NCBI GenBank assembly: GCA_001938485.1
Contig: MQRK01217052.1
Coordinates: 1 to 64,000, forward strand
Origin: Girardia tigrina
Taxonomy: Eukaryota
Direction of reading: 5' to 3'
DNA: 64,000 bases
The notes below the pieces were generated by a model. The model did not search any database. It saw nothing but the letters and a program-made list of their open reading frames with translations, and was not told where the DNA came from. Both the position numbers and the translations under genes were made by a program. The stretch's first letter is position 1; every line of letters begins with the position of its first letter. Below are positions 10,046 through 63,586 of this stretch, in pieces.

Positions 10046-11251
10046 TATTAGGTTGTTCGATATGAAACGGGTCAAACTTCACACCTTACATTTCAATCGC
10101 GTATAACTTAACTTTGAACTATCGTATGAAAATAAATAAGGTATTTCTTGACAGATNNNNNNNNNNNNNNNNNNNNNNNNNNNNNNNNNNNNNNNNNNNN
10201 NNNNNNNNNNNNNNNNNNNNNNNNNNNNNNNNNNNNNNNNNNNNNNNNNNNNNNNNNNNNNNNNNNNNNNNNNNNNNNNNNNNNNNNNNNNNNNNNNNNN
10301 NNNNNNNNNNNNNNNNNNNNNNNNNNNNNNNNNNNNNNNNNNNNNNNNNNNNNNNNNNNNNNNNNNNNNNNNNNNNNNNNNNNNNNNNNNNNNNNNNNNN
10401 NNNNNNNNNNNNNNNNNNNNNNNNNNNNNNNNNNNNNNNNNNNNNNNNNNNNNNNNNNNNNNNNNNNNNNNNNNNNNNNNNNNNNNNNNNNNNNNNNNNN
10501 NNNNNNNNNNNNNNNNNNNNNNNNNNNNNNNNNNNNNNNNNNNNNNNNNNNNNNNNNNNNNNNNNNNNNNNNNNNNNNNNNNNNNNNNNNNNNNNNNNNN
10601 NNNNNNNNNNNNNNNNNNNNNNNNNNNNNNNNNNNNNNNNNNNNNNNNNNNNNNNNNNNNNNNNNNNNNNNNNNNNNNNNNNNNNNNNNNNNNNNNNNNN
10701 NNNNNNNNNNNNNNNNNNNNNNNNNNNNNNNNNNNNNNNNNNNNNNNNNNNNNNNNNNNNNNNNNNNNNNNNNNNNNNNNNNNNNNNNNNNNNNNNNNNN
10801 NNNNNNNNNNNNNNNNNNNNNNNNNNNNNNNNNNNNNNNNNNNNNNNNNNNNNNNNNNNNNNNNNNNNNNNNNNNNNNNNNNNNNNNNNNNNNNNNNNNN
10901 NNNNNNNNNNNNNNNNNNNNNNNNNNNNNNNNNNNNNNNNNNNNNNNNNNNNNNNNNNNNNNNNNNNNNNNNNNNNNNNNNNNNNNNNNNNNNNNNNNNN
11001 NNNNNNNNNNNNNNNNNNNNNNNNNNNNNNNNNNNNNNNNNNNNNNNNNNNNNNNNNNNNNNNNNNNNNNNNNNNNNNNNNNNNNNNNNNNNNNNNNNNN
11101 NNNNNNNNNNNNNNNNNNNNNNNNNNNNNNNNNNNNNAGTGTGTTGACAACATGGGGGATATTTTGATTAAAAATAAAATGTTATTATTTAAAAAAAATC
11201 GATTTACATTTTACTTTAATTTTGACCCGTTTCATATCGAACAACCTAATA
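10046..11251 (+). mobile_element. Mariner element (cecropia-type ends), interior mostly N gap
   Basis: Perfect TIRs TTAGGTTGTTCGATATGAAACGGGTCAAA / TTTGACCCGTTTCATATCGAACAACCTAA flanked by TA. Transposase C-terminus CVDN.G.YFD-like just after the gap. Confidence 0.92.
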
Positions 11252-11416
11252 TCTGTGTTTTTTTTTATTTTGTCTTCGAAACTAGTGGTAGGCAATATTA
11301 CAATTGCAGTATGTAATTTGACTATAAAATCTGATTTTCAATCTGTGAAAGTAAAATTGCTCTCTGACAATGATTTAAATAATATAAAATTTAAGTGTGG
11401 ACGAATTAAAATTACC

Positions 11417-15260: not shown

Positions 15261-15381
15261 TTGCAATGAAAGATAGATTGAAATGGAAATTAAATTATTC
15301 AATCAATTTAATTATAGTTTTTTTTATTTTCATATATATATATATATATATTACATATATACATATAATATATACATATAA

Positions 15382-16640
15382 TATTAGGTTGGTCGAAAAA
15401 TAATGGCGGTTTTCGAGCTTTATACTTTGTTAATCTACTTTGATATGTATATAATTTTAAATGCATTAGTGTTAGATATTATTTGAAATCTTATGCCTAG
15501 CTGTATATTCCTATAGCCATTATTAACATATTGCTGTTATTTTTTTAGAATATTTATGGTGTTAAATTAATAATGGAAAAAATTAAAATTCGAGTAATTT
15601 TCTTGTACGAATTTAAACTGGGTCGTAAAGCAGCAGAAACGGCTCGCAATATCAATAAAGTGTTTGACAGGGGAACAGCTTCTGAGCGCACAGTACAACG
15701 ATGGTTCCGAAAATTTTCTGATGGAGATGAAAACCTTGAAGATGAAGAAGGTGATGGTCGTCCGGTTGCTGTGAACAACGAAAATTTGAGGACAATGGTG
15801 GAAACAGATCACCATACAACAATCAGAGAACTTGCAGATGGGTTGGGCATTAGTCCTGGATCATTTAAAACAACTTGGAAAAATCAAGAAACTTTATAAA
15901 TGGGTTCCACATGATTTGAATGAAAATCAAAAGAACCGACGCGGTGAAATTTGTTCTGCCAATCATCTTCGCAATAAAAACGATCCATTTCTTGATCGTA
16001 TTGTTACCTGTGATGAGAAATGGATCCTGTATGATAGCCGACGTCGATCTGCACAGTAGTTGGACAAAGATGAAGTACCGAAACACTTTCCAAAACCGAA
16101 ACTAACACCCCGTAAGGTTATGGTGACAGTTTGGTAGTGTGATGCTGGAATCATCCACTATAGTTTCTTGAATCCAGGTGAAACAATCACAGCGGAGAGG
16201 TACTGTCATGAAATTGATGAAATGCATAAGAAATTGAAAACCCTTTGTCCGGGATTGGTCAATCGAAAAAGTTCCATCCTTCTTCATGATAACACTAGAC
16301 CTCATATTTCAAAAGTGACTCTTCTATGAAATCCTGCTTCATCCACCATATTCACCAGACCTCTAGCCAACGGACTTCTACTTTTTCAGGCATTTGTACA
16401 ACTTCCTACGTGAAAAAATTTTCAAAAACCAAAATGATGCTCAAAATGCCTTCCAAGAATTCGTCNCTTCGAGAACCGATGCATTTTATGCTGATGGAAT
16501 AAAACAACTTGTTTCTCGTTGGTAAAAATGTATTGATGCCAACGGTTCATACTTTGATTAATAAACTTTTGTTTCTGTGAATTTGCACGACTTTGAAGTT
16601 TGTGTCCCATAACCGCCATTATTTTTCGACCAACCTTATA
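15382..16640 (+). mobile_element. Mariner (Hsmar1-like DD34D) transposon with pseudogenised transposase
   Basis: TIRs TTAGGTTGGTCGAAAAATAATGGCGGTT / AACCGCCATTATTTTTCGACCAACC.. with TA. Motifs WVPHDL, TCDEKW, HDN, HPPYSPDL; frameshifts and stops present. Confidence 0.97.
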
Positions 16641-17909: not shown

Positions 17910-19299
17910 TGATCAATCAAGAATTATTTATTAACATCCAACCATCAGAAATTAAATCGAATCTCTACAATATTTTGGACTGGTTTTCCTAGGAAATAAA
18001 TTGTTGTTAGTCCTATAAATTGTTCAATTCTCATCCTTGAATGTTTTCATTTGATTTGGAGATAGATTCATTTTTGACCTTCTTCCTCATCTGATAATGA
18101 TTTTTTTCTCAGTTGTTATTAACTAATTATATTGGTTTACGATGAAAACAGGGATAAAATTTAACTGAATGATCATTTTTACTATATAATTATTTATGTA
18201 AAGGAAGTTTGGCAAATAAAAAGTAGTTACTTTGTTCAGGTTCTTCAACAAGGTGTTTTAAATAGAAATAAGCACATATCATATGACCCTCTAGAATGAG
18301 TTCAAAGTGCATTAAAGTTACATCTGCTATGATAGCATTATTCTGAACTCCAAGTTAATAGAAATGTTGAATAGTTGTAAAATATTGAGGACCTAGTTCT
18401 TCTAACAATCTACGTGCAATATTGGCTGGTTGATTTTCCTCTTCAGCTAATAACGTTTCTTTTATTCAATTTGTAAGGGTGCCTCTTTTCGTTGATACGT
18501 TTTCTCCACAGCGACTGTCGTGAACTCAAATTGCTTTTTTTCAAAATTTATCTATTTTTATTTATTTTCCAAGTGTAATTTATGATTTAAAAAAGTACTG
18601 ACTTTATTATAATACCGTAGAATTTGTAAAATATAATTCTTAAATGAAAGAGCTTGGAATCATTCGCAGTATTGTAATGCTTTAATCACATTTTCAATAC
18701 AATGAATATGGATTATGAGACTGTATTTTAAAAGGGGTAATACAAAAGTTTAGATTGAAAATTAATGAAAATTGATTCGGATATCTTGTTTAATCCACCA
18801 ATATTCAAAGAATGAATGACTAGAAGGATCTTTTATATTATCGTCTGTTCAGGTATTTTATTCATCCTTCAGAATGGAAAATAAAAAATACGGATTTATT
18901 TTATTTTGATTGTTTTTCAATTCGATAAGAAAATTCATTTCTTTCAGTAAAATTAAAAATCAATATTTTAAAATTTATTTTTTTTCGTTAAATAATAATG
19001 TTTTGTTGTTTTATTAAGAATAAATGAAATTATTTTTGCTCTGATGTTTTAAATGAAAGAGATAAAATGGAACGAAATTCAAAGTATAAAAATTTTGTAA
19101 AAAAAATTTTAAAATAACACACATTATTTTCTGTTTTAAACTTTGAAATGAAATTGTTTTTATTTATAACTCAATATATAAATTCATTTATTAATATACA
19201 TTTATTAATATATTTTTAATAATATATATTTATTAGTATATAAAAAGTTTTATGCAGCAATTTTAACAACTATTGAGAAAGAGTATCGTCTGAGGCATT

Positions 19300-20074
19300 A
19301 ATAATTAAAGCGGTTGATCCAACAATATATTCAATCAAGTGACTTTATTTAAAGTTTTTGTGTGAAACAGCAATTACGCAATTGACTACAGCACTCTCTT
19401 CTAACATGTCCTTCTTCGTGACATGCACAATAGGTAATTTTTCGAACTTTAAAATTTCTTCTTATTTCTCGTTCTTTGAATTTCTCGTTCTTTGGTCTTG
19501 GTGTTCTTTTTTATTTTCCACTGTTCTCCATTCATTTTCTCTTTTTGTGTTATATACCGCTACAGGAGCGTTTCTTTTCTTTTTATCATATTCAAACATT
19601 CTCATTTGAATGTCTTCAATCTCTTCAGATTTCTTGACACCTCTAACAGCTATTTCTTTCTGTACGTTCTCATGATCTATCATATTAGCGTAGACCAAAT
19701 TTGATATTTCTTTTTTACCCAACTTTTTTCAATTAAATTTTCAATGGTTTCATCAGCCTTTCTAAATGTTACTGTTGGATCGCTGGATCCAATTCTCATT
19801 TCTTCCAGTTTCATCATTAGATCAAGGATAGATTTTTCCTTTGAAAACGCGGATCTTAGTTTCTCTTCACATGTTTCACCTGTTGCAGCTTCATATTTTA
19901 TTATGACATCCGGAGTCATATATGGTGTTGCTAATAAGATTTTTCTATTATCTGAAAATCCTGTTATCTTCGCATACCTGTTAAAGCTCGTTATGTATGC
20001 CTCAACTTTTGTTTCTGATCCATCAAAAATCTCCGGACCTCTAATGTTCGGAATCACGTGGTCGTGTGTCGCCA
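19300..20074 (-). mobile_element. Gypsy-type internal region: PBS plus frameshifted gag
   Basis: PBS TGGCGAC... at 20074 directly after the LTR. Gag PEIFDGSETKVEAYITSFNRYA, and zinc-knuckle relic YCACHEEGHVRREC near 19385-19430. Confidence 0.85.
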
Positions 20075-27328: not shown

Positions 27329-28509
27329 AAAATTATTTGTCTAAATAAACGAATAAAATATTATTCCCCAAGTCAAACCACAGTATTCAAGCTTTTCTTT
27401 TCAAGTTTATCAAAAAAAATTACAAATTTTTTTTAAAAAATCAGAACGTGTTTTCCTTAACTTTTTTACGTGGATAAATTTTATGTTTATTCGAAAGAAT
27501 AAAACTTGTGATTATTTTAAAATTTTTTCATAAAAAAAGAAAAAAATTAACACAAAATAATTCCAAAAATAATAATAAACTTCCAGTTGAAACGTAAAAC
27601 TCAAAGTTGTTTTTGTTGTCAAGTAAATATTTTGATGGAAATAATTGAGAGAAATGAGAAAAAAATATTTTTAAAACTAAAAATACTTAACTGACATTAA
27701 TTAAATGTGGAAAAAACCTTTTTTTTCTCCTAAAGTTTGTTTTCTATGAAAGTAGCAAAACAAAAAAGATAATCATATAATATTTCAAATAAAAAAGAAA
27801 CGGAAACAAAGTTCTCGTGTATGAAAGACTATTTTTTCGAAAAAAAATCATTTTCCATTTTTTTGAAAATAAAGTAAATATTAAATATTTAAAAAATGGA
27901 TTGGAAATTCTCTCTGTGCAATTAGAAAAAATATTTTAAAGGAAACTGGAAAACTTTTTGAAACAATAATCCAATTAAAAGTATATTATGTTTTATATAA
28001 TAATAATTAAATTTATTTGTTTCATTTAAATTCAATTTGAAAAAAAAATTATTTTGCTTTTTTTATTTTTTCATCGTTTTTTTCTTAATATTTACATTTT
28101 CGTCTACTGAAAATATTTTATTTTCGTATATAATAAAATATTTTAAAAAATTTCTTTCAAAAAATCAATAATAAAAATCAATAAAGTCACGACAATTTTG
28201 CTAAATTTATTTGTATTTTTAATTTTTTTAGTCAGCAAATAAATTTGATTAAATATAATTTGATTAAATATAATTTATTTTGTATTTCGTCATATTTGGT
28301 TTTTAACGACGTTAAATAAAACTAAGCGTTCAGTTTAGTTTAAAAACTTAAATTAATTGACTAAGAATATTTAACTGATAAAATAGATATTTTAAATAAA
28401 TTATGTGAAAAAAAAACTTCTCTGAAAACCGAACTTAATGCAATTATTTTAAACGAATAAACGCCATTTAAAAATATATTTTATGATAATTTATTTCGAC
28501 GTAAATGTA

Positions 28510-28820
28510 ATATGAGCATAAATGATTTTAAGATTTTGTGCAGCCATTTTAAAAATTATTGGTAGAGAGTGTCGTGTGAAGGATTGTTGATAAGATCATG
28601 TGATCCTAAAATCAATGTTCAAACAGCACTCTCAACTAATTTGTTAAGATTTTCTGATTAGACTTACGTAAGTGATTGCACAATCATTCATTTATTATAT
28701 AGAAGCAATAAAAAAGAACATAATCAGTGATCTGATGATGACGGTTAAACCGTCGAAATATATTATCATAAAATATATTTTTAAATGGAGTTTATTTGTT
28801 TATAATAAAAATTGCCATCT
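28510..28820 (+). mobile_element. Penelope-like element 3' end / pseudo-LTR
   Basis: FKILCSHFKNYW*RVSCEGLLIRSCDPKINVQ...* is a GIY-YIG C-terminal tail homologous to 56200-56330 and 46660-46780; a hammerhead follows. Confidence 0.8.
28727..28769 (+). ncRNA. Minimal type I hammerhead ribozyme (intact core)
   Basis: GTGAT-CTGATGA-T-GACGG-TTAAA-CCGTC-GAAA-TATA-TT-ATCAT: stem I, CUGANGA, perfect 5-bp stem II, GAAA, palindromic minimal stem III, NUH site. Confidence 0.88.
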
Positions 28821-28829
28821 TTTTACAAG

Positions 28830-29560
28830 TTAATTATTTTAAAATTATTTAGTTCAAAGGGCACTTTTTTGATTGGATGTCTCATTTTGCACATTTGAGC
28901 TTTATAAAATATATCTTCCACAATTAATGTCAAATACTACTATTGGTTTTACAAATAACTTGAGTAGATATTTTAATTTGCCTTTATTTGCAGTTTTGTT
29001 GATAAAAATCTTTTCTAAATTTAGTTATTTCGGGATTCTACCCGTTTGATTTGGATAAAAAATGTTATTCGATTGTCAGTAATCGGTATTATATTCTTTT
29101 TCTAAAAAAATCTCACGTGTTTTATTATTTTCTGTTTTATGTCTTCTTATTTCATTTCGTAATTTTGTTTTTTACATCAAAAATATTGAATTTTGTTTGT
29201 GAAAAAACCTCTCAATAACCAGAACAAAAAAATATGAGTGCATTTCATGAGCACATAAAATATAATTATGTTACTCTTTTTAAGAGATATAAAAGAAATA
29301 AAAATAAAAAAACACACCGTTTGTATAACATTTTTTTCATTTTTGTGACTATTAATTTCGACGGTATAACGGCTATCGTCAGGTCTCAAGAAAAAGTGAA
29401 TTTAAAATCTGCTCATATAGGCAAGCAGTGATTGCATAATCAATGTGTTGTTGAATCATCTAAACACGCTCAATAGGGTTTTCGAGAGACTCGTTTGCAT
29501 ACTAATCTTAGAATTCTCAGGTTTCGTCTCCTGACTTAAAATTATTTGTTTAAATTTTGA
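28830..29560 (-). mobile_element. Penelope-like remnant (pseudo-LTR plus downstream sequence)
   Basis: ORF tail ...KISMQTSLSKTLLSVFR* resembles the other PLE C-termini; 29340-29485 is an inverted homologue of 32113-32250. Confidence 0.65.
29345..29387 (-). ncRNA. Hammerhead ribozyme with damaged stem II
   Basis: GAGAC-CTGACGA-T-AGCCG-TTATA-CCGTC-GAAA-TTAA-TA-GTCAC; both core boxes intact. Confidence 0.7.
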
Positions 29561-45593: not shown

Positions 45594-46499
45594 TTATTGA
45601 AAAATATTTAAAAATTAGAGGATTTTTTTAATTCTTTAAATTAACATTTTAGTGAAGGTTAAAAAATCTTTCGGGTACCCTTCTATAATGATTTTTTCTA
45701 TTTTTAGAAAATAGATGTTTAAGTTTGACTTTAGAATTTTTTTTATTTTGATAATTTATTATTTAATAATTTTATATTATTTTTTTTAATTATCATTTAT
45801 CATTTTAGATCTGCTTGGAGTTTAGATCAAAGGAAAATGTTTTACTATATCAATGTAAAAATATATTATGGCAATAGAAATCATGTTATAATATAAAAAA
45901 TTTAATTGTTCAGTTTTCAACAACGAAAAATAATATTGTACTAAATAAAGCTACCACTATATAAAACGCTTCACGTTTATTTGATTCGATTTTTCAGATT
46001 TATTACTAGAATTGTCTGGAGCATGCGTTTGATCAGTAATATTCAGTACTGTCTCTAAGTTTCTCTCCTCAGTCTTCCGACACACTAACGTTTGACAAAT
46101 CTCCATGAAAAGGATCCATATTCTTTTCGCTTCTTACAACGATTTCTGTACCATTTATAAAGCATTTGTTCATTTCATTTGTGTCACTTAACAATGTTCG
46201 TTTCGTTCAAAATTAATTTGTTTGTTTGTAGTTATTTAAAACAGATTTATTTTTCCATTCATAAAAAATAATTTAAATATTAAAAATTTATACATTTTTT
46301 AATATTTATATTATTTTTTTAAAATATTTTTAGTAATAACGAATTAATAATAAAAAATCAACAGATTTTCAAAAACATTTAAATTTATTTTAGCACATCT
46401 GTCGTTGCGTGCATTTTTCGTGCACGCATTTGTCGGGTCCCATTTGCTCGTATCTAAACTGCGTACGAATATTATGTTTGTTCAAACAATATCAATTTT

Positions 46500-46930
46500 C
46501 ATAAATAATAACATCATTGAAAAAACTGAATTTTATTCCTTCAAAAAAAATATTTTGGTAGTTTTTTCACCATCATCAGGCTTAATTAATAATCTTGTAA
46601 CAATTAAAATGATGATTATATAATCAAGTGATACAATAACTAATAAAATAATTTTAACAAAGTTAAGAGGCACTTGTTTGGGCATTAATTGATGAATTAT
46701 GTAATTTAATCAATAATGCTTCTCAAGAAACTCTTTCCCAATAATTTTTAAAATTACTGCACAATATTTTAAAATCAGTAATTTTCATATCCGATCTAAA
46801 AACTTCCATAAGCCTAGCAATCTTACTGCCATTTTCTAATCATTTGTGCTCCTGAATCTACAGATATGATGAGACATCTCTCCAATGTATGGAGCATTCA
46901 TTACAAGAAAACTGATTGCAAGAATAAAAT
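46500..46930 (-). mobile_element. Penelope-like GIY-YIG remnant plus pseudo-LTR
   Basis: QFSCNEC..YIGE motif and DFKILCSNFKNYWERVS*EALLIK...IN; homologous to 56195-56440. Confidence 0.8.
46546..46582 (-). ncRNA. Decayed hammerhead ribozyme
   Basis: AGC-CTGATGA-T-GGTGA-AAAAA-CTACC-AAAA-TATT; positional homologue of 56400 with GAAA changed to AAAA. Confidence 0.6.
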
Positions 46931-48480: not shown

Positions 48481-50962
48481 TCGTTCGCGTTTTCCATTTA
48501 GGGTATGAAACACAAATATTATCTGGAGATATGTTTTTATTTTTCTCATAAAATTATTGAATGTATTTTTATCATAAGATCAAACAATAATTGCTCAGCG
48601 AATCGAAAGGAAATTTTGAACCTTTTGGCAACGATTAATCAGAGATTATTCAGAAAACAATTATTCTTATTCTCTTTTACCGGAACAGTTCGATTGTGGA
48701 AAGAACTCACTGAGCAATTTTACTCATGATAATTTTAATTTTTTTTATCCCGATTTTCGATGGTCCGCGTGCAGGATCAGAAAGAAGCATTATCTTAATC
48801 ACGCAAATTGTCTTTTAAAGCGTCATTCGAAAATCAAATTCAAATTGAATGAAGATTAGTTTCAATACCAAAATGGCACGATAGTTCTTTCAAAAATGTT
48901 TTTGAGATCTCACTCCAAATTTGGTTTAATATGTGCAAAAGAAAATTCATTGAATTTTCTCTATTCGAGGTTTATTGTTGATAGGAAAATTGGTATAAAA
49001 TTGGAATTTTAATAAAACTGAACTGGAAAATAATCAATAAACAAATTGATTAATAATTAACAATATCTAATACCGTTTATGGCTTTTGTACAGACTTTTC
49101 AAAAATGAATAAATTTTTGTTAGTTACCCCGGTTATTTTTATTTTGTTTTATTTACACCTATTTTTTATTTTTTTTATAGTTAAACGTTAATAACTTGTT
49201 AATTCTTTTTTATTTACTAGTAAAAGTAAATATTCGACAATACTCGAATATTTATTTTTACAGTTAGTAACGTTTATATCGTTTTAGATATTAGAATAGG
49301 AATTAATCAAAATTTTTATTAGCACAAATTAATAATTTTTATTACAAACAAATTCAAACAAATTTTCAATTTCTTTTGCCGACATTTATCTTAATTTTCA
49401 AATTCTGATTACAGCTTTAGAAACTTAATATTTAAATTAATATGTAATTTAATTTTAATTTAATTTATTTTTAATTAAAAAAAACTTTTTTACAAAACAT
49501 TAAAATTCTTTTATTTTAAATTAATTAAATATTTTTCAAAAATAATATTTATTTTAAAGATTTAAGAAAATATATTATTTCACAGCAAATAAACATTAAT
49601 TATAGCTCTTCTTTATTATTTTCAAAAATTATAAACTTAAAAATATAGTATATTTCAATTATATAATGAAACTTGATTTAAAATTCAATTTAATTTTTAA
49701 TAATAAGTTTTCTTGTAATTTTAATCATTTCTGAATAATTAAAATTTATCAGCCAAAAAAATAAACAAACTTATCATAATTTTTAAAATACGTAAGATAT
49801 TTGATAAATAAAATATGATATTAAAATAAAAATTTAAATATAAATAAATATTTTTATTTATTCAATACAAACTAAAGACAAATTATTCAAACGGAAACTT
49901 ATGATTATTAATTTCACTGAATTATCTATATTATTTTTTCTAAGGATTAAAGTAATATAAAAAGTCATTATAAATAATTACAAATAAATGTTAACACTCA
50001 ACCCAAATTATTTTATCCCAAAAGTCAAAATTCCGAATCAATAATTTTCACTGATGGAGAAAAAAATTATTCATGTTTATAAAAATCTTTTTCAAATCCA
50101 AAATATAATCTTTAATCTGATAAAAACGTATTTGCTTCAGTGAGAGACAATAAAGTTAAATCTCCTTAAAAGGAACTTTATTATTAATTACATCCTCCTA
50201 GTTTCTTTGATATTATACATTATCCTCTTTTTTATTATACTACCTTGTTATTGTCATAACAATTTTAAAAATGTTTTAATAAGAGTTATTTTTTATTATT
50301 TTTAACTAATACTTTATTAAGTAAATAATAATTACAAACATGTTATATATTAAAAAGCTATTCGAGTTAAAACTATTTTCATAGTTATAACAGAAGAAAT
50401 TTTACGGTTGTTTGATTTAAATAATTTTGTTTTTAAGTGATCGTTTTTACGTGAATTTGATATACCTTGATTTAAAAAGTTTTATAAAAAACAATTTTTA
50501 CCAAGAAAAAATATTTATTTGTTTTTTTGTTTAAGAAAGTGGTTCCCCCAAAAAAGGGAATCTCTTTAATTTTTTAGAATAATGTTTCACTTTTGATTGT
50601 GTTTTCGTTTTAAATAAACATATATTCTTTCATATTAGTAGAGATTCACAAAACTGCCCTTCGTAATGTGGATCAAATCCCATTCGTAGAACAAAAAACT
50701 CACGTTCGAAATTGATGAGATTCTATCCTTACAACATAGCCAATGGTCAAGAACCTTACTCGATCAACTCATTTGCGAGTGCCCACTAATCCAGGTTTTG
50801 AGATGACGATTTGTCTCTCCGATGTACGAGTTTTGATACCCGTGACAATTAAATTTATAAACCATATTAGCTTGCAATCCACAAACTGTTTTCGATTTAT
50901 TTGAGAGAACACTACAACCCATCAATTAGCATTCAAAATTGGCAAAGGAAGGCCATTTCAAT

Positions 50963-52270: not shown

Positions 52271-52892
52271 TGAATTGACATTTAGACTATCTAATTCTAC
52301 AACAACCTGATGTTTATTGTGCTAATAAATGTTCCTTATTACTTTGTATTTATTAATTTATTTTGTTTATGGAAAATATCCACTCGATTTCATTCTTCCT
52401 TACAATATATATGTGTGCGTTTTACGGCAAATATGTTTAAAGAGAAACATAAAATGTCTGCAAAGTTGATCAAAAATATTAAATACCGTACCCCTCTTTT
52501 GAAAAAAATGTTATAAAAGAATCTTAAAATAGTTATTTAACGGAATATAATTGGTTTCCCGATCTGTTTAATAATCTTTGCAAATCGAATTATTAATTCA
52601 GCAATTATTTAATAATTTTTACAATCAATTAATCTTTTTTTAATTTACTAATTATTTAAATTAATTTATGTAAAAAAAACTTAAAACCTTATTTCAAACA
52701 ATCATATTACATAAATAACAAAATAAAGATTTACAAAATCCCAAAGAAATAAAAGATTTTTTAAGAATATTTATTCAAGAGTTATTTCTCTATTGGAAAA
52801 AAATAGAAAACGCAGCATTTTTCGATAAAAGAATGAACAGTGTTCTTCATAACTCGAATTTACCCCTCATTTAGTTTCTAAGTTGTTGTTTA

Positions 52893-54215
52893 TATTAGGT
52901 TGGTCGAAAAATAATGGCGGTTTTTGAGCTTTATACTTTGTTTATCTACTTTGATATGTATATAAGTTTAAATGCATTAGTGTTAGATATTATTTGAAAT
53001 CTTANNNNNNNNNNNNNNNNNNNNNNNNNNNNNNNNNNNNNNNNNNNNNNNNNNGTATATTCCTATAGCCATTATTAACATATTGCTGTTATTTTTTAGA
53101 ATATTTACGGTGCTAAATTAATAATGGAAAAAAATTAAAATTCGAGCAATTTTCTTGTACGAATTTAAACTGGTTCGTAAAGCAGCAGAAACGGCTCTCA
53201 ATATCAATAAAGCGTTTGGCTAGGAAACAGCTTCTGAGCGCACAGTGCAACGATGGTTCCGAAAATTTTCTGATGGAGATGAAAACCTTGAAGATGAAGA
53301 AGGTCGTGGTCGTTCGGTTGCTGTGAACAACGACAATTTGAGGATAATGGTGGAAACAGATCCCCGTACAACAATCAGAGAACTTGCAGATGGGTTGGGC
53401 ATTAGTCATTCAACAGTCCTGGATCATTTAAAACAACTTATAAAAAACAAGAAACTTGATAAATGGGTTCCTCATGATTTGTATGAAAAAAAAGAACCGA
53501 CGCGATGAAATTTGTTCTGCCAATCATCTTCGCAATAAAAACGATCCATTTCATGATCGTATTATTACCTGTAATGAGAAATGGATCCTGTATGATAACC
53601 GACGTCGATCTGCACAGTGGTTGGACAAAGATGAACTACCGAAACACTTTCCAAAACCGAAACTAACACCCCGTAAGGTTATGGTGACAGTTTGGTGGTG
53701 TGATGCTAGAATCATCCACTATAGTTTCTTGAATTTAGGTGAAACAATCACAGTGGATAGGTACTGTCATAAAATTGATAAAATGCATAACAAATTGAAA
53801 ACCCTTTGTCCGGGATTGGTCAATCGAAAAAGTCCCATCCTTCTTCATGATAACACTCATATTTCAAAAGTGACTCTTCAAAAGCTTAATGAGTTGGGCT
53901 ATGAAACCCTGCTTCATCCACCATATTCACCAGATCTCTCGTCAACGGACTTCTACTTTTTCAAGCATTTGTATAACTTCCTACGTGAAAAAATTTTCAA
54001 AAACCAAAATGATGCTCAAAATGCCTTCCAAGAATTTGTCGCTTCGAGAACCGATGCATTTTATGCTGATGGAATAAAACAACTTGTTTCTCGTTGGCAA
54101 AAATGTATTGATGCCAACGGTTCATACTTTGATTAATAAACTTTTGTTTCTGTGAATTTGCACGTCTTTGAAGTTTGTGTCCCAAAACCGCGATTATTTT
54201 TCGACCAACCTAATA
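52893..54215 (+). mobile_element. Mariner (Hsmar1-like), second copy of the 15382 family, pseudogenised
   Basis: Same TIRs with TA; WVPHDL, HDN, HPPYSPDL, RWQKCIDANGSYFD. Frameshifts present, and the first catalytic D is changed to N (TCNEKW). Confidence 0.97.
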
Positions 54216-56194: not shown

Positions 56195-57200
56195 AAATAA
56201 AATATTGTGCAGTAATTTAAAAAATTATTGGGAAAGAGTTACTTGTGAGGCATTATTGATTAAATCACTTAATCCGTCCATTAATGTTCAAACAAGTCTC
56301 TCTTCCAATTTGTTGAAAATATTTAATTAGTTATTACGCAAGATGTTTGCATAATCATCAATTTGCTATAGATGAGACAGCGAAGTTGTTGTTAATTCAG
56401 CCTGAAGATGGTGGAAAATCCACCGAAATATATTGCAATAAAATTTGAGTTTAATGACGTTCTTAATAATAATAACATTGTTATAAAAATTATAAATTCT
56501 TGTGAGACGTCTGAAGTTTTTTTTATACATTGCATTATCGCCAAAATCCAATTCCAGCATCCTATATCATCATAGGATTTTTACACGAAAAATTTACTCA
56601 AATAACTAATTCTTCACAGACAATATATGGAAATTTCTTTATTGCATGTATTCAAACAAGAACTAAGTGAACTGTTTAATTTAATATTGTGATTTGAATC
56701 ATTAAAGTAATATTTATTTTGGTTATTTCTTCATTACGGACTATACTCTCATTCAATTGCAGTTCTTCTTTTACCTTCTTCTGTTCAGAGTTTTATTAAC
56801 TAAGATAATTGTAAAAGTACAATAAATCTATGTAATCGTTTGCACGGCAATCTGTTCAATTAAAAAATAAGCAAGAATATTGTGTGTTTAAAAGCATTTT
56901 ATCGTTTGCATTATTGAAAAAAATTTTAATTTTTAATAATTTATAACTTTTATACAGTCCTTGAATTACCATTTAATGTCACGGGGTTAAATCGAAGAAT
57001 TGACGTTTATCATGATAAAAAGTTATCTTCATGTATTCTTCGTGGCTTTATTAATTAGAAAAATGATTGAGCTCTTCAAAGGAACAAATGTTGAATTTAA
57101 ACGAATGGTAGATTTTGAATGAGTGAATTTAGAAGTAAAATTAATTTTTTAACTAAATGAAGCCGATATTTGATTACTTAAAATGATCAATTAATTACTG
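56195..57200 (+). mobile_element. Penelope-like remnant: GIY-YIG tail, pseudo-LTR, probable decayed ORF start
   Basis: KILCSNLKNYWERVTCEALLIKSLNPSINVQTSLSSNLLKIFN*, then a hammerhead; the 3' boundary is approximate. Confidence 0.75.
56400..56436 (+). ncRNA. Minimal type I hammerhead ribozyme (intact core, 2-bp stem I)
   Basis: GC-CTGAAGA-T-GGTGG-AAAAT-CCACC-GAAA-TATA-TT-GC. Confidence 0.82.
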
Positions 57201-57827: not shown

Positions 57828-58068
57828 AATAATTTTGTTAAACCTTTTTTAAAAAAATTACTTACATGTTTCGGAATTCATTTTCCATCATCAAAAATTA
57901 TGGTATAATGTGTAAGATAATTAATTTTAAAAATAATATTTACTGATAAAATCTCCCATTAATAAACATTTATTATCTTACATATTGAAATTGCAGACGA
58001 TTGAAAAAGAATTCCGAAACATGTGCAATAAACAATTTTTTAAAAAAGGCTTTAACAAAATTTCTTTT
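57826..58068. repeat. Inverted repeat with ~60-bp arms (foldback/MITE-like)
   Basis: ATTTTGTTAAACCTTTTTTAAAAAA..ACATGTTTCGGAATTC versus GAATTCCGAAACATGT..TTTTTTAAAAAAGGCTTTAACAAAAT. Confidence 0.8.
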
Positions 58069-63199: not shown

Positions 63200-63586
63200 T
63201 TTAATAAATTGTTTTTAAAATTTATTTTAAAAATTATAAATTTTAATCGAAAACAATCTGTGAATTGCAAGCTAATCTGGTTGATAAATTGAATTGTCAC
63301 GGATGTAATAACTATTACATTGGTGAAACAAATCGTCATCTCAAAATCCAGTTTATTGAGCATTCTTAATCGACTCGATCGAGTAAGAATTTTTATCATT
63401 GGTTACATTGTAAAAATAGAATCTCTTCTGTTTCCAGGGTTGTGTTTTTTTGTTTTACAGAAGGGCTTTGATTCATAATATGATGAGCAGGTTTGTTTAT
63501 CATTATTGATAAGACACTTCAACCCGTTCATAAACATTCAAGATGAACAAAGTAAAGTTGTATCAAATTTTAAAATCTTTAAATAA
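63200..63586 (+). mobile_element. Penelope-like GIY-YIG endonuclease relic
   Basis: NCHGCNNYYIGETNRHLKIQFIEH ... LLIRHFNPFINIQ...FKIFK*. Confidence 0.88.

Follow-up and report, generated by a model that had tools for sequence, protein, structure and literature searches.

Penelope-like elements (PLEs) are laid out with pLTR direct repeats, inverted truncated copies and an optional tail of 30-40 nt, and the role of their hammerheads has been called unclear (both in the accessible part of PMC8557442). In the sections available of Cervera and De la Pena 2014 (PMC4209133), minimal PLE hammerheads are described as forming many covarying families per genome, with a palindromic helix III, low activity as dimers and, in D. 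virilis Penelope, a helix I of 2 bp. Cleavage in the dimeric form is credited to Lunse et al. in the excerpt available of a review (PMC6765202). Schostak et al. 2008 (PMC2377424, accessible portion) describe the promoter of D. virilis Penelope as internal and TATA-less and place a 75-bp intron 46 bp downstream of the start. Another described system is the Anolis carolinensis Poseidon element PAc, for which the available part of Frangieh et al. 2024 (PMC11167929) reports an ORF that begins at stem II and a cut 26 nt after the start codon. Cleavage of PAc requires protein and the main template is uncut RNA, with no reads ending at the cut site and normal insertion in vitro by a ribozyme-dead version.

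Here we describe a hammerhead of this type in a 64,000-nt stretch of the Girardia tigrina genome (contig MQRK01217052.1), referred to below as the window. The motif is a real, conserved hammerhead of an already-known kind and, as a ribozyme, ordinary for PLEs. Tens of thousands of genomic matches in at least eleven families make it a natural-variant test set for the role of PLE hammerheads and, if the predicted start site is right, cleavage removes the start codon from the element's own message.

Results

Hammerhead anatomy and genomic copies

The minimal hammerhead of the window (Table 1) combines a stem I of two pairs (GC at 56400-01 with GC at 56435-36) with the full catalytic core of CUGANGA, GAAA and UH, here CUGAAGA at 56402-08 and GAAA at 56425-28. 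An extra U (56409) lies between A9 and G10.1, the G10.1-C11.1 pair is present, and stem II pairs GGUGG (56410-14) with CCACC (56420-24) across a 5-nt loop. A palindromic stem III spans 56428-33 (UAUA; U16.1 is 56433), and H17 is U 56434, after which the cut is predicted to fall. The first-pass annotation had read the core, extra U, stems and loop in the same way, and the letters bear it out, as do stop-to-core distances of 71 nt here and 70 nt in the copy at 28732 for its remark that both hold the same position relative to a PLE stop. The canonical type-I feature, a 6-bp helix I with loop 1-loop 2 contacts, is absent from the 11 families defined below, which have a stem I of 2-5 bp and no distal helix, and the window itself gave no Rfam match. 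Self-cutting by the window-type hammerhead is likely.

Table 1. Positions of the family B copy, its parts and the comparison copy within the window.
Feature	Positions	Strand	Basis or remark
PLE copy of family B, truncated at its 5' end, 275 bp; comprises ORF end and spacer, then hammerhead and tail	56198..56472	+	93.8% identity over 276 nt to the 3' end of L098
Final PLE ORF codons, end of GIY-YIG endonuclease region; TAG stop at 56328-56330	56198..56330	+	95% identity over 41 aa to the ORF end of L020
Two near-palindromic TT(A/G)C(A/G)(T/C)AA sites, predicted bZIP-type	56334..56355	+	site 54-58 nt before the core in 9/9 family consensuses
TATA box position	56369..56376	+	family B TATATAAG starts 33 nt before the core in 65/76 copies
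Initiator-like TCAGC, predicted +1 at A56399	56397..56401	+	30 nt after TATA start; inferred
Minimal type-I hammerhead	56400..56436	+	sequence read, fold, family alignment, pairing test
AUG (A9, extra U, G10.1) and first PLE ORF codons, forming the tail of the window copy	56408..56472	+	same AUG opens the L098 ORF
Comparison copy, family A; hammerhead core 28732-28764	28503..28838	+	

The 37-mer 56400-56436 folds with z = -2.89, and a scan of the whole window returned no Rfam family at gathering score. Since a loose hammerhead pattern gives 7 matches in the window against 2.9 expected, a count reached by 4 of 100 shuffles, it is the genome-wide count rather than the window that carries the case. 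Three core patterns, divided by the first bases of the stem III loop, were run with reversed controls over the AT-rich assembly of 1.43 Gb and gave 11,123, 12,955 and 11,452 matches against 0, 10 and 0 in the controls. These patterns fix the outer pairs of stems II and III (G10.1-C11.1 and A15.1-U16.1), and in other families fix or allow the extra base 9/10.1 and G10.1-C11.1. The exact stretch of family B from stem II to the cut site occurs 1,937 times in the genome, and 1,368 times with GC and the core in front. From sampled loci, 212 distinct motif copies were grouped into 11 multi-copy families and 29 single copies.

Further hammerheads lie in the window. A third one at 29350-29382 (minus strand), of family H type, follows a PLE ORF end and has a TTAA loop and a GAC/GUC stem I, with mutations in the 5' side of stem II and in the AUG. 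An older PLE fragment at 46494-46914 (minus strand), 74% identical to family B, contains a decayed hammerhead from 46579. A hammerhead-like motif at 57864-57894 (minus strand) has its C3 replaced by U and a loop that reads CATG, and resembles the single copy L182.

Covariation among families

Stem II of the window copy had been called completely different from that of the copy at 28732, which overstates the case. GGTGG/CCACC and GACGG/CCGTC have 6/10 bases in common and differ only at pairs 2 and 3 (2/5). From the 28732 copy to the window copy, pair 2 goes from A-U to G-C and pair 3 from C-G to U-A, all four changes being transitions, and both single-step intermediates, GGCGG/CCGCC and GATGG/CCATC, occur as families of their own.

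The same annotation took the compensatory changes as a sign of selection on structure. Two window copies are insufficient for that claim; the comparison of families suffices. In an alignment of one natural copy per family (n=11, the 29 single copies omitted), imposing the hammerhead structure leaves 88.8% of 143 cells paired against 65.7% after shuffling; none of 500 shuffles reaches this value, and controls in which the structure was slid along the sequence give 24.5-52.9%. Stem II is paired in 55/55 cells, with double changes at 4/5 pairs, and a paired stem II, set as the test beforehand, is present in all 11 families. The inner pairs of stem III are complementary in 22/22 cells, and its loop is always palindromic while covarying between TATA, TTAA, CATG and CGCG. 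Pairs 1 and 2 of stem I are paired in 22/22 cells with six double changes each, against a mere 51.5% for pairs 3-5. A family tree built from about 185 nt of the ORF end supports 0/6 branches. Because the families are kin and the tree is without supported branches, the covariation counts are not independent events, and the compensatory steps are therefore neither ordered nor counted. The alignment supports the view that stem II has been kept by compensatory change between PLE families.

Length of stem I

The first-pass annotation had also recorded a stem I of 2 bp and regarded the motif as an ultra-minimal variant in need of dimerisation, distal pairing or protein help, unless stem I had simply decayed. 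The length itself holds. Exactly two contiguous pairs are present in 75/80 family B copies, fewer in 5 and more in none, and stem I in the 11 family consensuses measures 2, 2, 2, 2, 3, 3, 3, 4, 4, 5 and 5 bp, so that the trait is shared by 4/11 families. As 75/80 copies have it and pairs 1 and 2 are always paired between families, the short stem is not decay, and in these alignments two stem I pairs are the conserved minimum. Nor is the motif unusual in this respect, given the 2-bp helix I of D. virilis Penelope (PMC4209133, sections available).

That stem I is lengthened by pairing with distal flanks, or has merely decayed in the window copy, is accordingly highly improbable. One unconstrained fold of 56380-56460 does form a wobble-rich outer helix, and family B has the second-best class of cognate flank duplex at -10.7 kcal/mol. 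Across families, however, flanks swapped between families pair as well as cognate ones (mean -7.1 against -6.7 kcal/mol, permutation P = 0.72), the family B duplex does not stand out from shuffles (P = 0.12), and P < 0.05 is reached in 1/11 families. Length variation next to stem I might also seem to favour a longer helix: among the first 100 copies listed, 59 have the window form and 41 carry 3 extra nt after GC. These nucleotides, however, make up one whole codon and add no contiguous stem I pair.

In a nearest-neighbour model, the monomer with stems I and III closed lies at -2.0 kcal/mol against -8.2 for the lone stem II hairpin, a cost of about 6 kcal/mol, and the first pair of stem I is predicted to form with a probability of 0.003. 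The predicted duplex through the palindrome is weak (-2.6 kcal/mol). The idea that read-through RNA forms a better stem I than RNA from the start site found no support, as predicted pair probabilities fall below 0.1 in both for 7/7 families.

The carrier element

The window copy is 95-97% identical to genomic copies of family B. The full-length copy L098 carries the hammerhead in each of its flanking repeats; the two motifs are separated by 2,408 nt and enclose an ORF with RT and GIY-YIG regions that is broken yet readable. In sister copies, Pfam RVT_1 and GIY-YIG both score above cut-off, and overlapping open frames in natural copies support a single ORF of RT with a C-terminal GIY-YIG. A same-strand GIY-YIG or RT match lies upstream of the hammerhead in 9/11 families; families D and K gave no such match in the 2 copies tested per family, and the single copy L179, with D-like flanks, has a PLE-like ORF end. 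Among 70 loci with a family B copy, 55 hold a single copy, 14 an inverted pair and one a same-strand pair, the latter 2.4 kb apart around an ORF. Family B thus fits the PLE layout with its pLTR repeats, inverted pairs and two classes of tail.

Inspection by eye of the linker between RT and endonuclease found no extra zinc-finger-like motif, the criterion being that of PMC8557442 (accessible part), and the family B element probably belongs to the Penelope/Poseidon clade on this basis. The window copy itself is most likely an inert, truncated insertion with a damaged TATA box, and selection would have acted in active master copies rather than here.

PLE-type GIY-YIG remnants with no recognisable hammerhead after them are found at 19244-19327 (plus strand), 50713-50913 (minus strand) and 63214-63553 (plus strand). 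Elsewhere in the window a segment of about 1.2 kb occurs twice at 94-97% identity (15381-16623 and 52892-54198), its second copy containing a 230-codon open frame (53444-54136). The very AT-rich interval 10066-11316, with >330 codons open in all six frames, is probably a simple repeat or a masked run.

An AUG within the ribozyme

In family B, the PLE ORF starts with the AUG that lies at the foot of stem II, a feature overlooked, like the promoter-like block below, in the first-pass annotation. In L098 it opens about 240 codons (25 masked), and the open frames of L103 and L088 overlap this stretch and run into the RT; this link from AUG to RT is seen in family B only. Codons 1-10 run from stem II through GAAA and stem III to the 3' strand of stem I, and the cut would follow codon 9. 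The amino acids encoded at the motif vary between families, and the pairing is therefore not a by-product of protein conservation. In family J the AUG frame closes after 13 codons.

Genomic copies retain sequence past the cut site. The family's next 8 nt beyond it are present in 1,595 of the 1,937 exact copies, and tails end mostly 34-44 or 65-78 nt past that site, with 1/82 ending at the cut site itself in a set of loci mostly chosen for having downstream sequence. For these reasons the copies were not made from RNA ending at the cut.

A promoter-like block upstream

The 70-nt spacer between stop and core contains a promoter-like block, in the same order, in nine families (all but J and K). 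Its first part is formed by the near-palindromic sites, which we take to be bZIP-type DNA sites; a second exact site lies further up in 5/9 consensuses, and the motif was defined after the fact on the same sequences, with a background of 86/1,782 windows. TATAWAWR starts 32-38 nt before the core in 8/9 families (the family G consensus being shortened by a deletion), against a background of 99/5,634 eleven-base windows; its counterpart in family C is TATTTATA, 37 nt upstream of the core. The window box differs from its family by two substitutions (56371 and 56374). The 18 bases after the TATA box are just 30% alike across eight families.

TATA-to-initiator spacing serves as a promoter criterion. 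Families B, A, C, E, F and G have an initiator-like TYA(G/T) 28-31 nt downstream of the TATA box; family I fits this spacing less well, and D and H do not fit it. Together these signals predict that transcription starts 3-7 nt before the hammerhead core, and such a start would leave room for a short stem I only.

The CAG within 56397..56401 could alternatively be a splice acceptor. In a layout like that of D. virilis, it would mark the end of a spliceosomal intron, and splicing would provide stem I with a different 5' strand, which might be longer. Such an arrangement would agree with D. virilis Penelope, whose intron end falls at the 5' boundary of helix I (PMC4209133, sections available), and 7/9 families have a YAG whose last base is 1-6 nt upstream of the core. 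It is nonetheless unlikely. Families E and H are without YAG, a donor-like site occurs within 130 nt in 3/9 consensuses at unrelated positions, and splicing at the CAG would cost the conserved G-C pair of family B its G. As a weak test, none of the 15 joints listed, with 28 more beyond these, has intron ends on the element strand. In RNA contigs from 4 of 18 runs (contigs only), an element start, an element end or a clear splice joint was not seen. We prefer the reading of the block as a promoter.

Outside this genome, 120 metagenome loci (L215-L334) with a similar motif form 22 clusters, none of which has a TATA box within 75 nt upstream; PLE identity is established for none of these loci, and several of them resemble chance hits within protein genes. 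The main cluster, one repeat family with 98 of the 120 loci, combines a 4-bp stem I with a closed AUG frame and no TATA box. As all 22 outside clusters are without a TATA box, the promoter layout is so far seen in this genome only. Our literature search turned up no description of a TATA box directly adjoining a PLE hammerhead, and the accessible parts of PMC13725137 and bioRxiv 10.64898/2026.07.22.740005 contain nothing on one; earlier publications and their supplements may already show this layout or 2-bp stems.

Families J and K (for example L117, L118, L136 and L138) are abundant, with CATG and CGCG loops and stem II loops of 6 or 7 nt. As both are without the TATA block and the J frame closes early, they may belong to other PLE groups.

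Discussion

Our analysis points, with good probability, to a minimal type-I hammerhead in the pLTR of a high-copy PLE whose family-wide 2-bp stem I and palindromic stem III likely prevent it from cutting alone, so that a dimer or a bound element protein would be needed. By analogy with the described systems, both dimer cleavage and help from a protein are plausible for the window-type hammerhead. In the mechanism we envisage, transcription from a promoter in the pLTR would begin a few bases upstream of the core, and the RNA would remain uncut long enough for translation and copying. A cut made later, behind codon 9, would separate the cap and AUG from the remaining ORF and thereby switch translation off or process tandem transcripts.

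A more specific version is put forward only tentatively. In at least nine PLE families, an LTR-like promoter of paired bZIP-type sites, TATA box and initiator may start the RNA 3-7 bases before the core, so that the length of stem I would be determined by the start site. The first 40 bases of the mRNA, together with their cap, would then serve as 5' UTR, start codon and ribozyme in one, and the element protein might trigger loss of the cap and first nine codons of such a self-decapitating message as a feedback switch from translation to copying.

The structure might instead be kept for a job other than cutting. It could, for example, bind the PLE protein or help to start its translation, in which case catalysis would be a vestige. 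Three observations would suit such a job: minimal hammerheads of metazoans have very low activity in vitro (PMC4209133, sections available), PAc catalytic mutants show unaffected insertion in vitro (PMC11167929, available part), and genomic copies retain sequence past the cut site. The catalytic bases, however, are intact (the core itself being part of the search pattern), the covarying pairs of stems I and III lie precisely on either side of the cut site, and PAc cuts in the presence of protein, with rescue of C3G by G8C (PMC11167929, available part). We consider a purely non-catalytic role quite improbable and favour a hammerhead that cuts with assistance.

Comparison with described systems places family B among the minimal type-I hammerheads of PLEs, above all that of D. 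virilis Penelope. Shared features are the pLTR site, the extra base between A9 and G10.1, the G10.1-C11.1 pair, a small palindromic helix III, a 2-bp helix I and many families with compensatory changes. In both elements the promoter, here predicted, lies in the pLTR upstream of the hammerhead. Unlike the D. virilis Penelope variant, family B has a stem II of 5 bp without a bulge and a palindromic loop of 4 nt, and it has no clear intron end at helix I. It is also set apart by a TATA-type block directly upstream and by a start predicted at 3-7 nt from the core. Non-LTR retrozymes likewise have a type-I hammerhead and a link to PLEs (PMC7229834 and bioRxiv 10.64898/2026.07.22.740005, accessible parts); they are short non-coding tandem repeats, whereas family B encodes its own RT and is dispersed.

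An AUG within the hammerhead is already published for Anolis PAc, as is the 2-bp helix I for D. virilis. Like PAc, family B begins its ORF at stem II, is predicted to be cut after about 26-27 nt of ORF, has tail ends that fall into two classes separated by some 30-40 nt, and is copied from uncut RNA. Counted from the ORF start, its tails end at about 64 and 99 nt, in contrast to 111-118 nt for the PAc start site, and cleavage, assayed in PAc, is predicted in family B.
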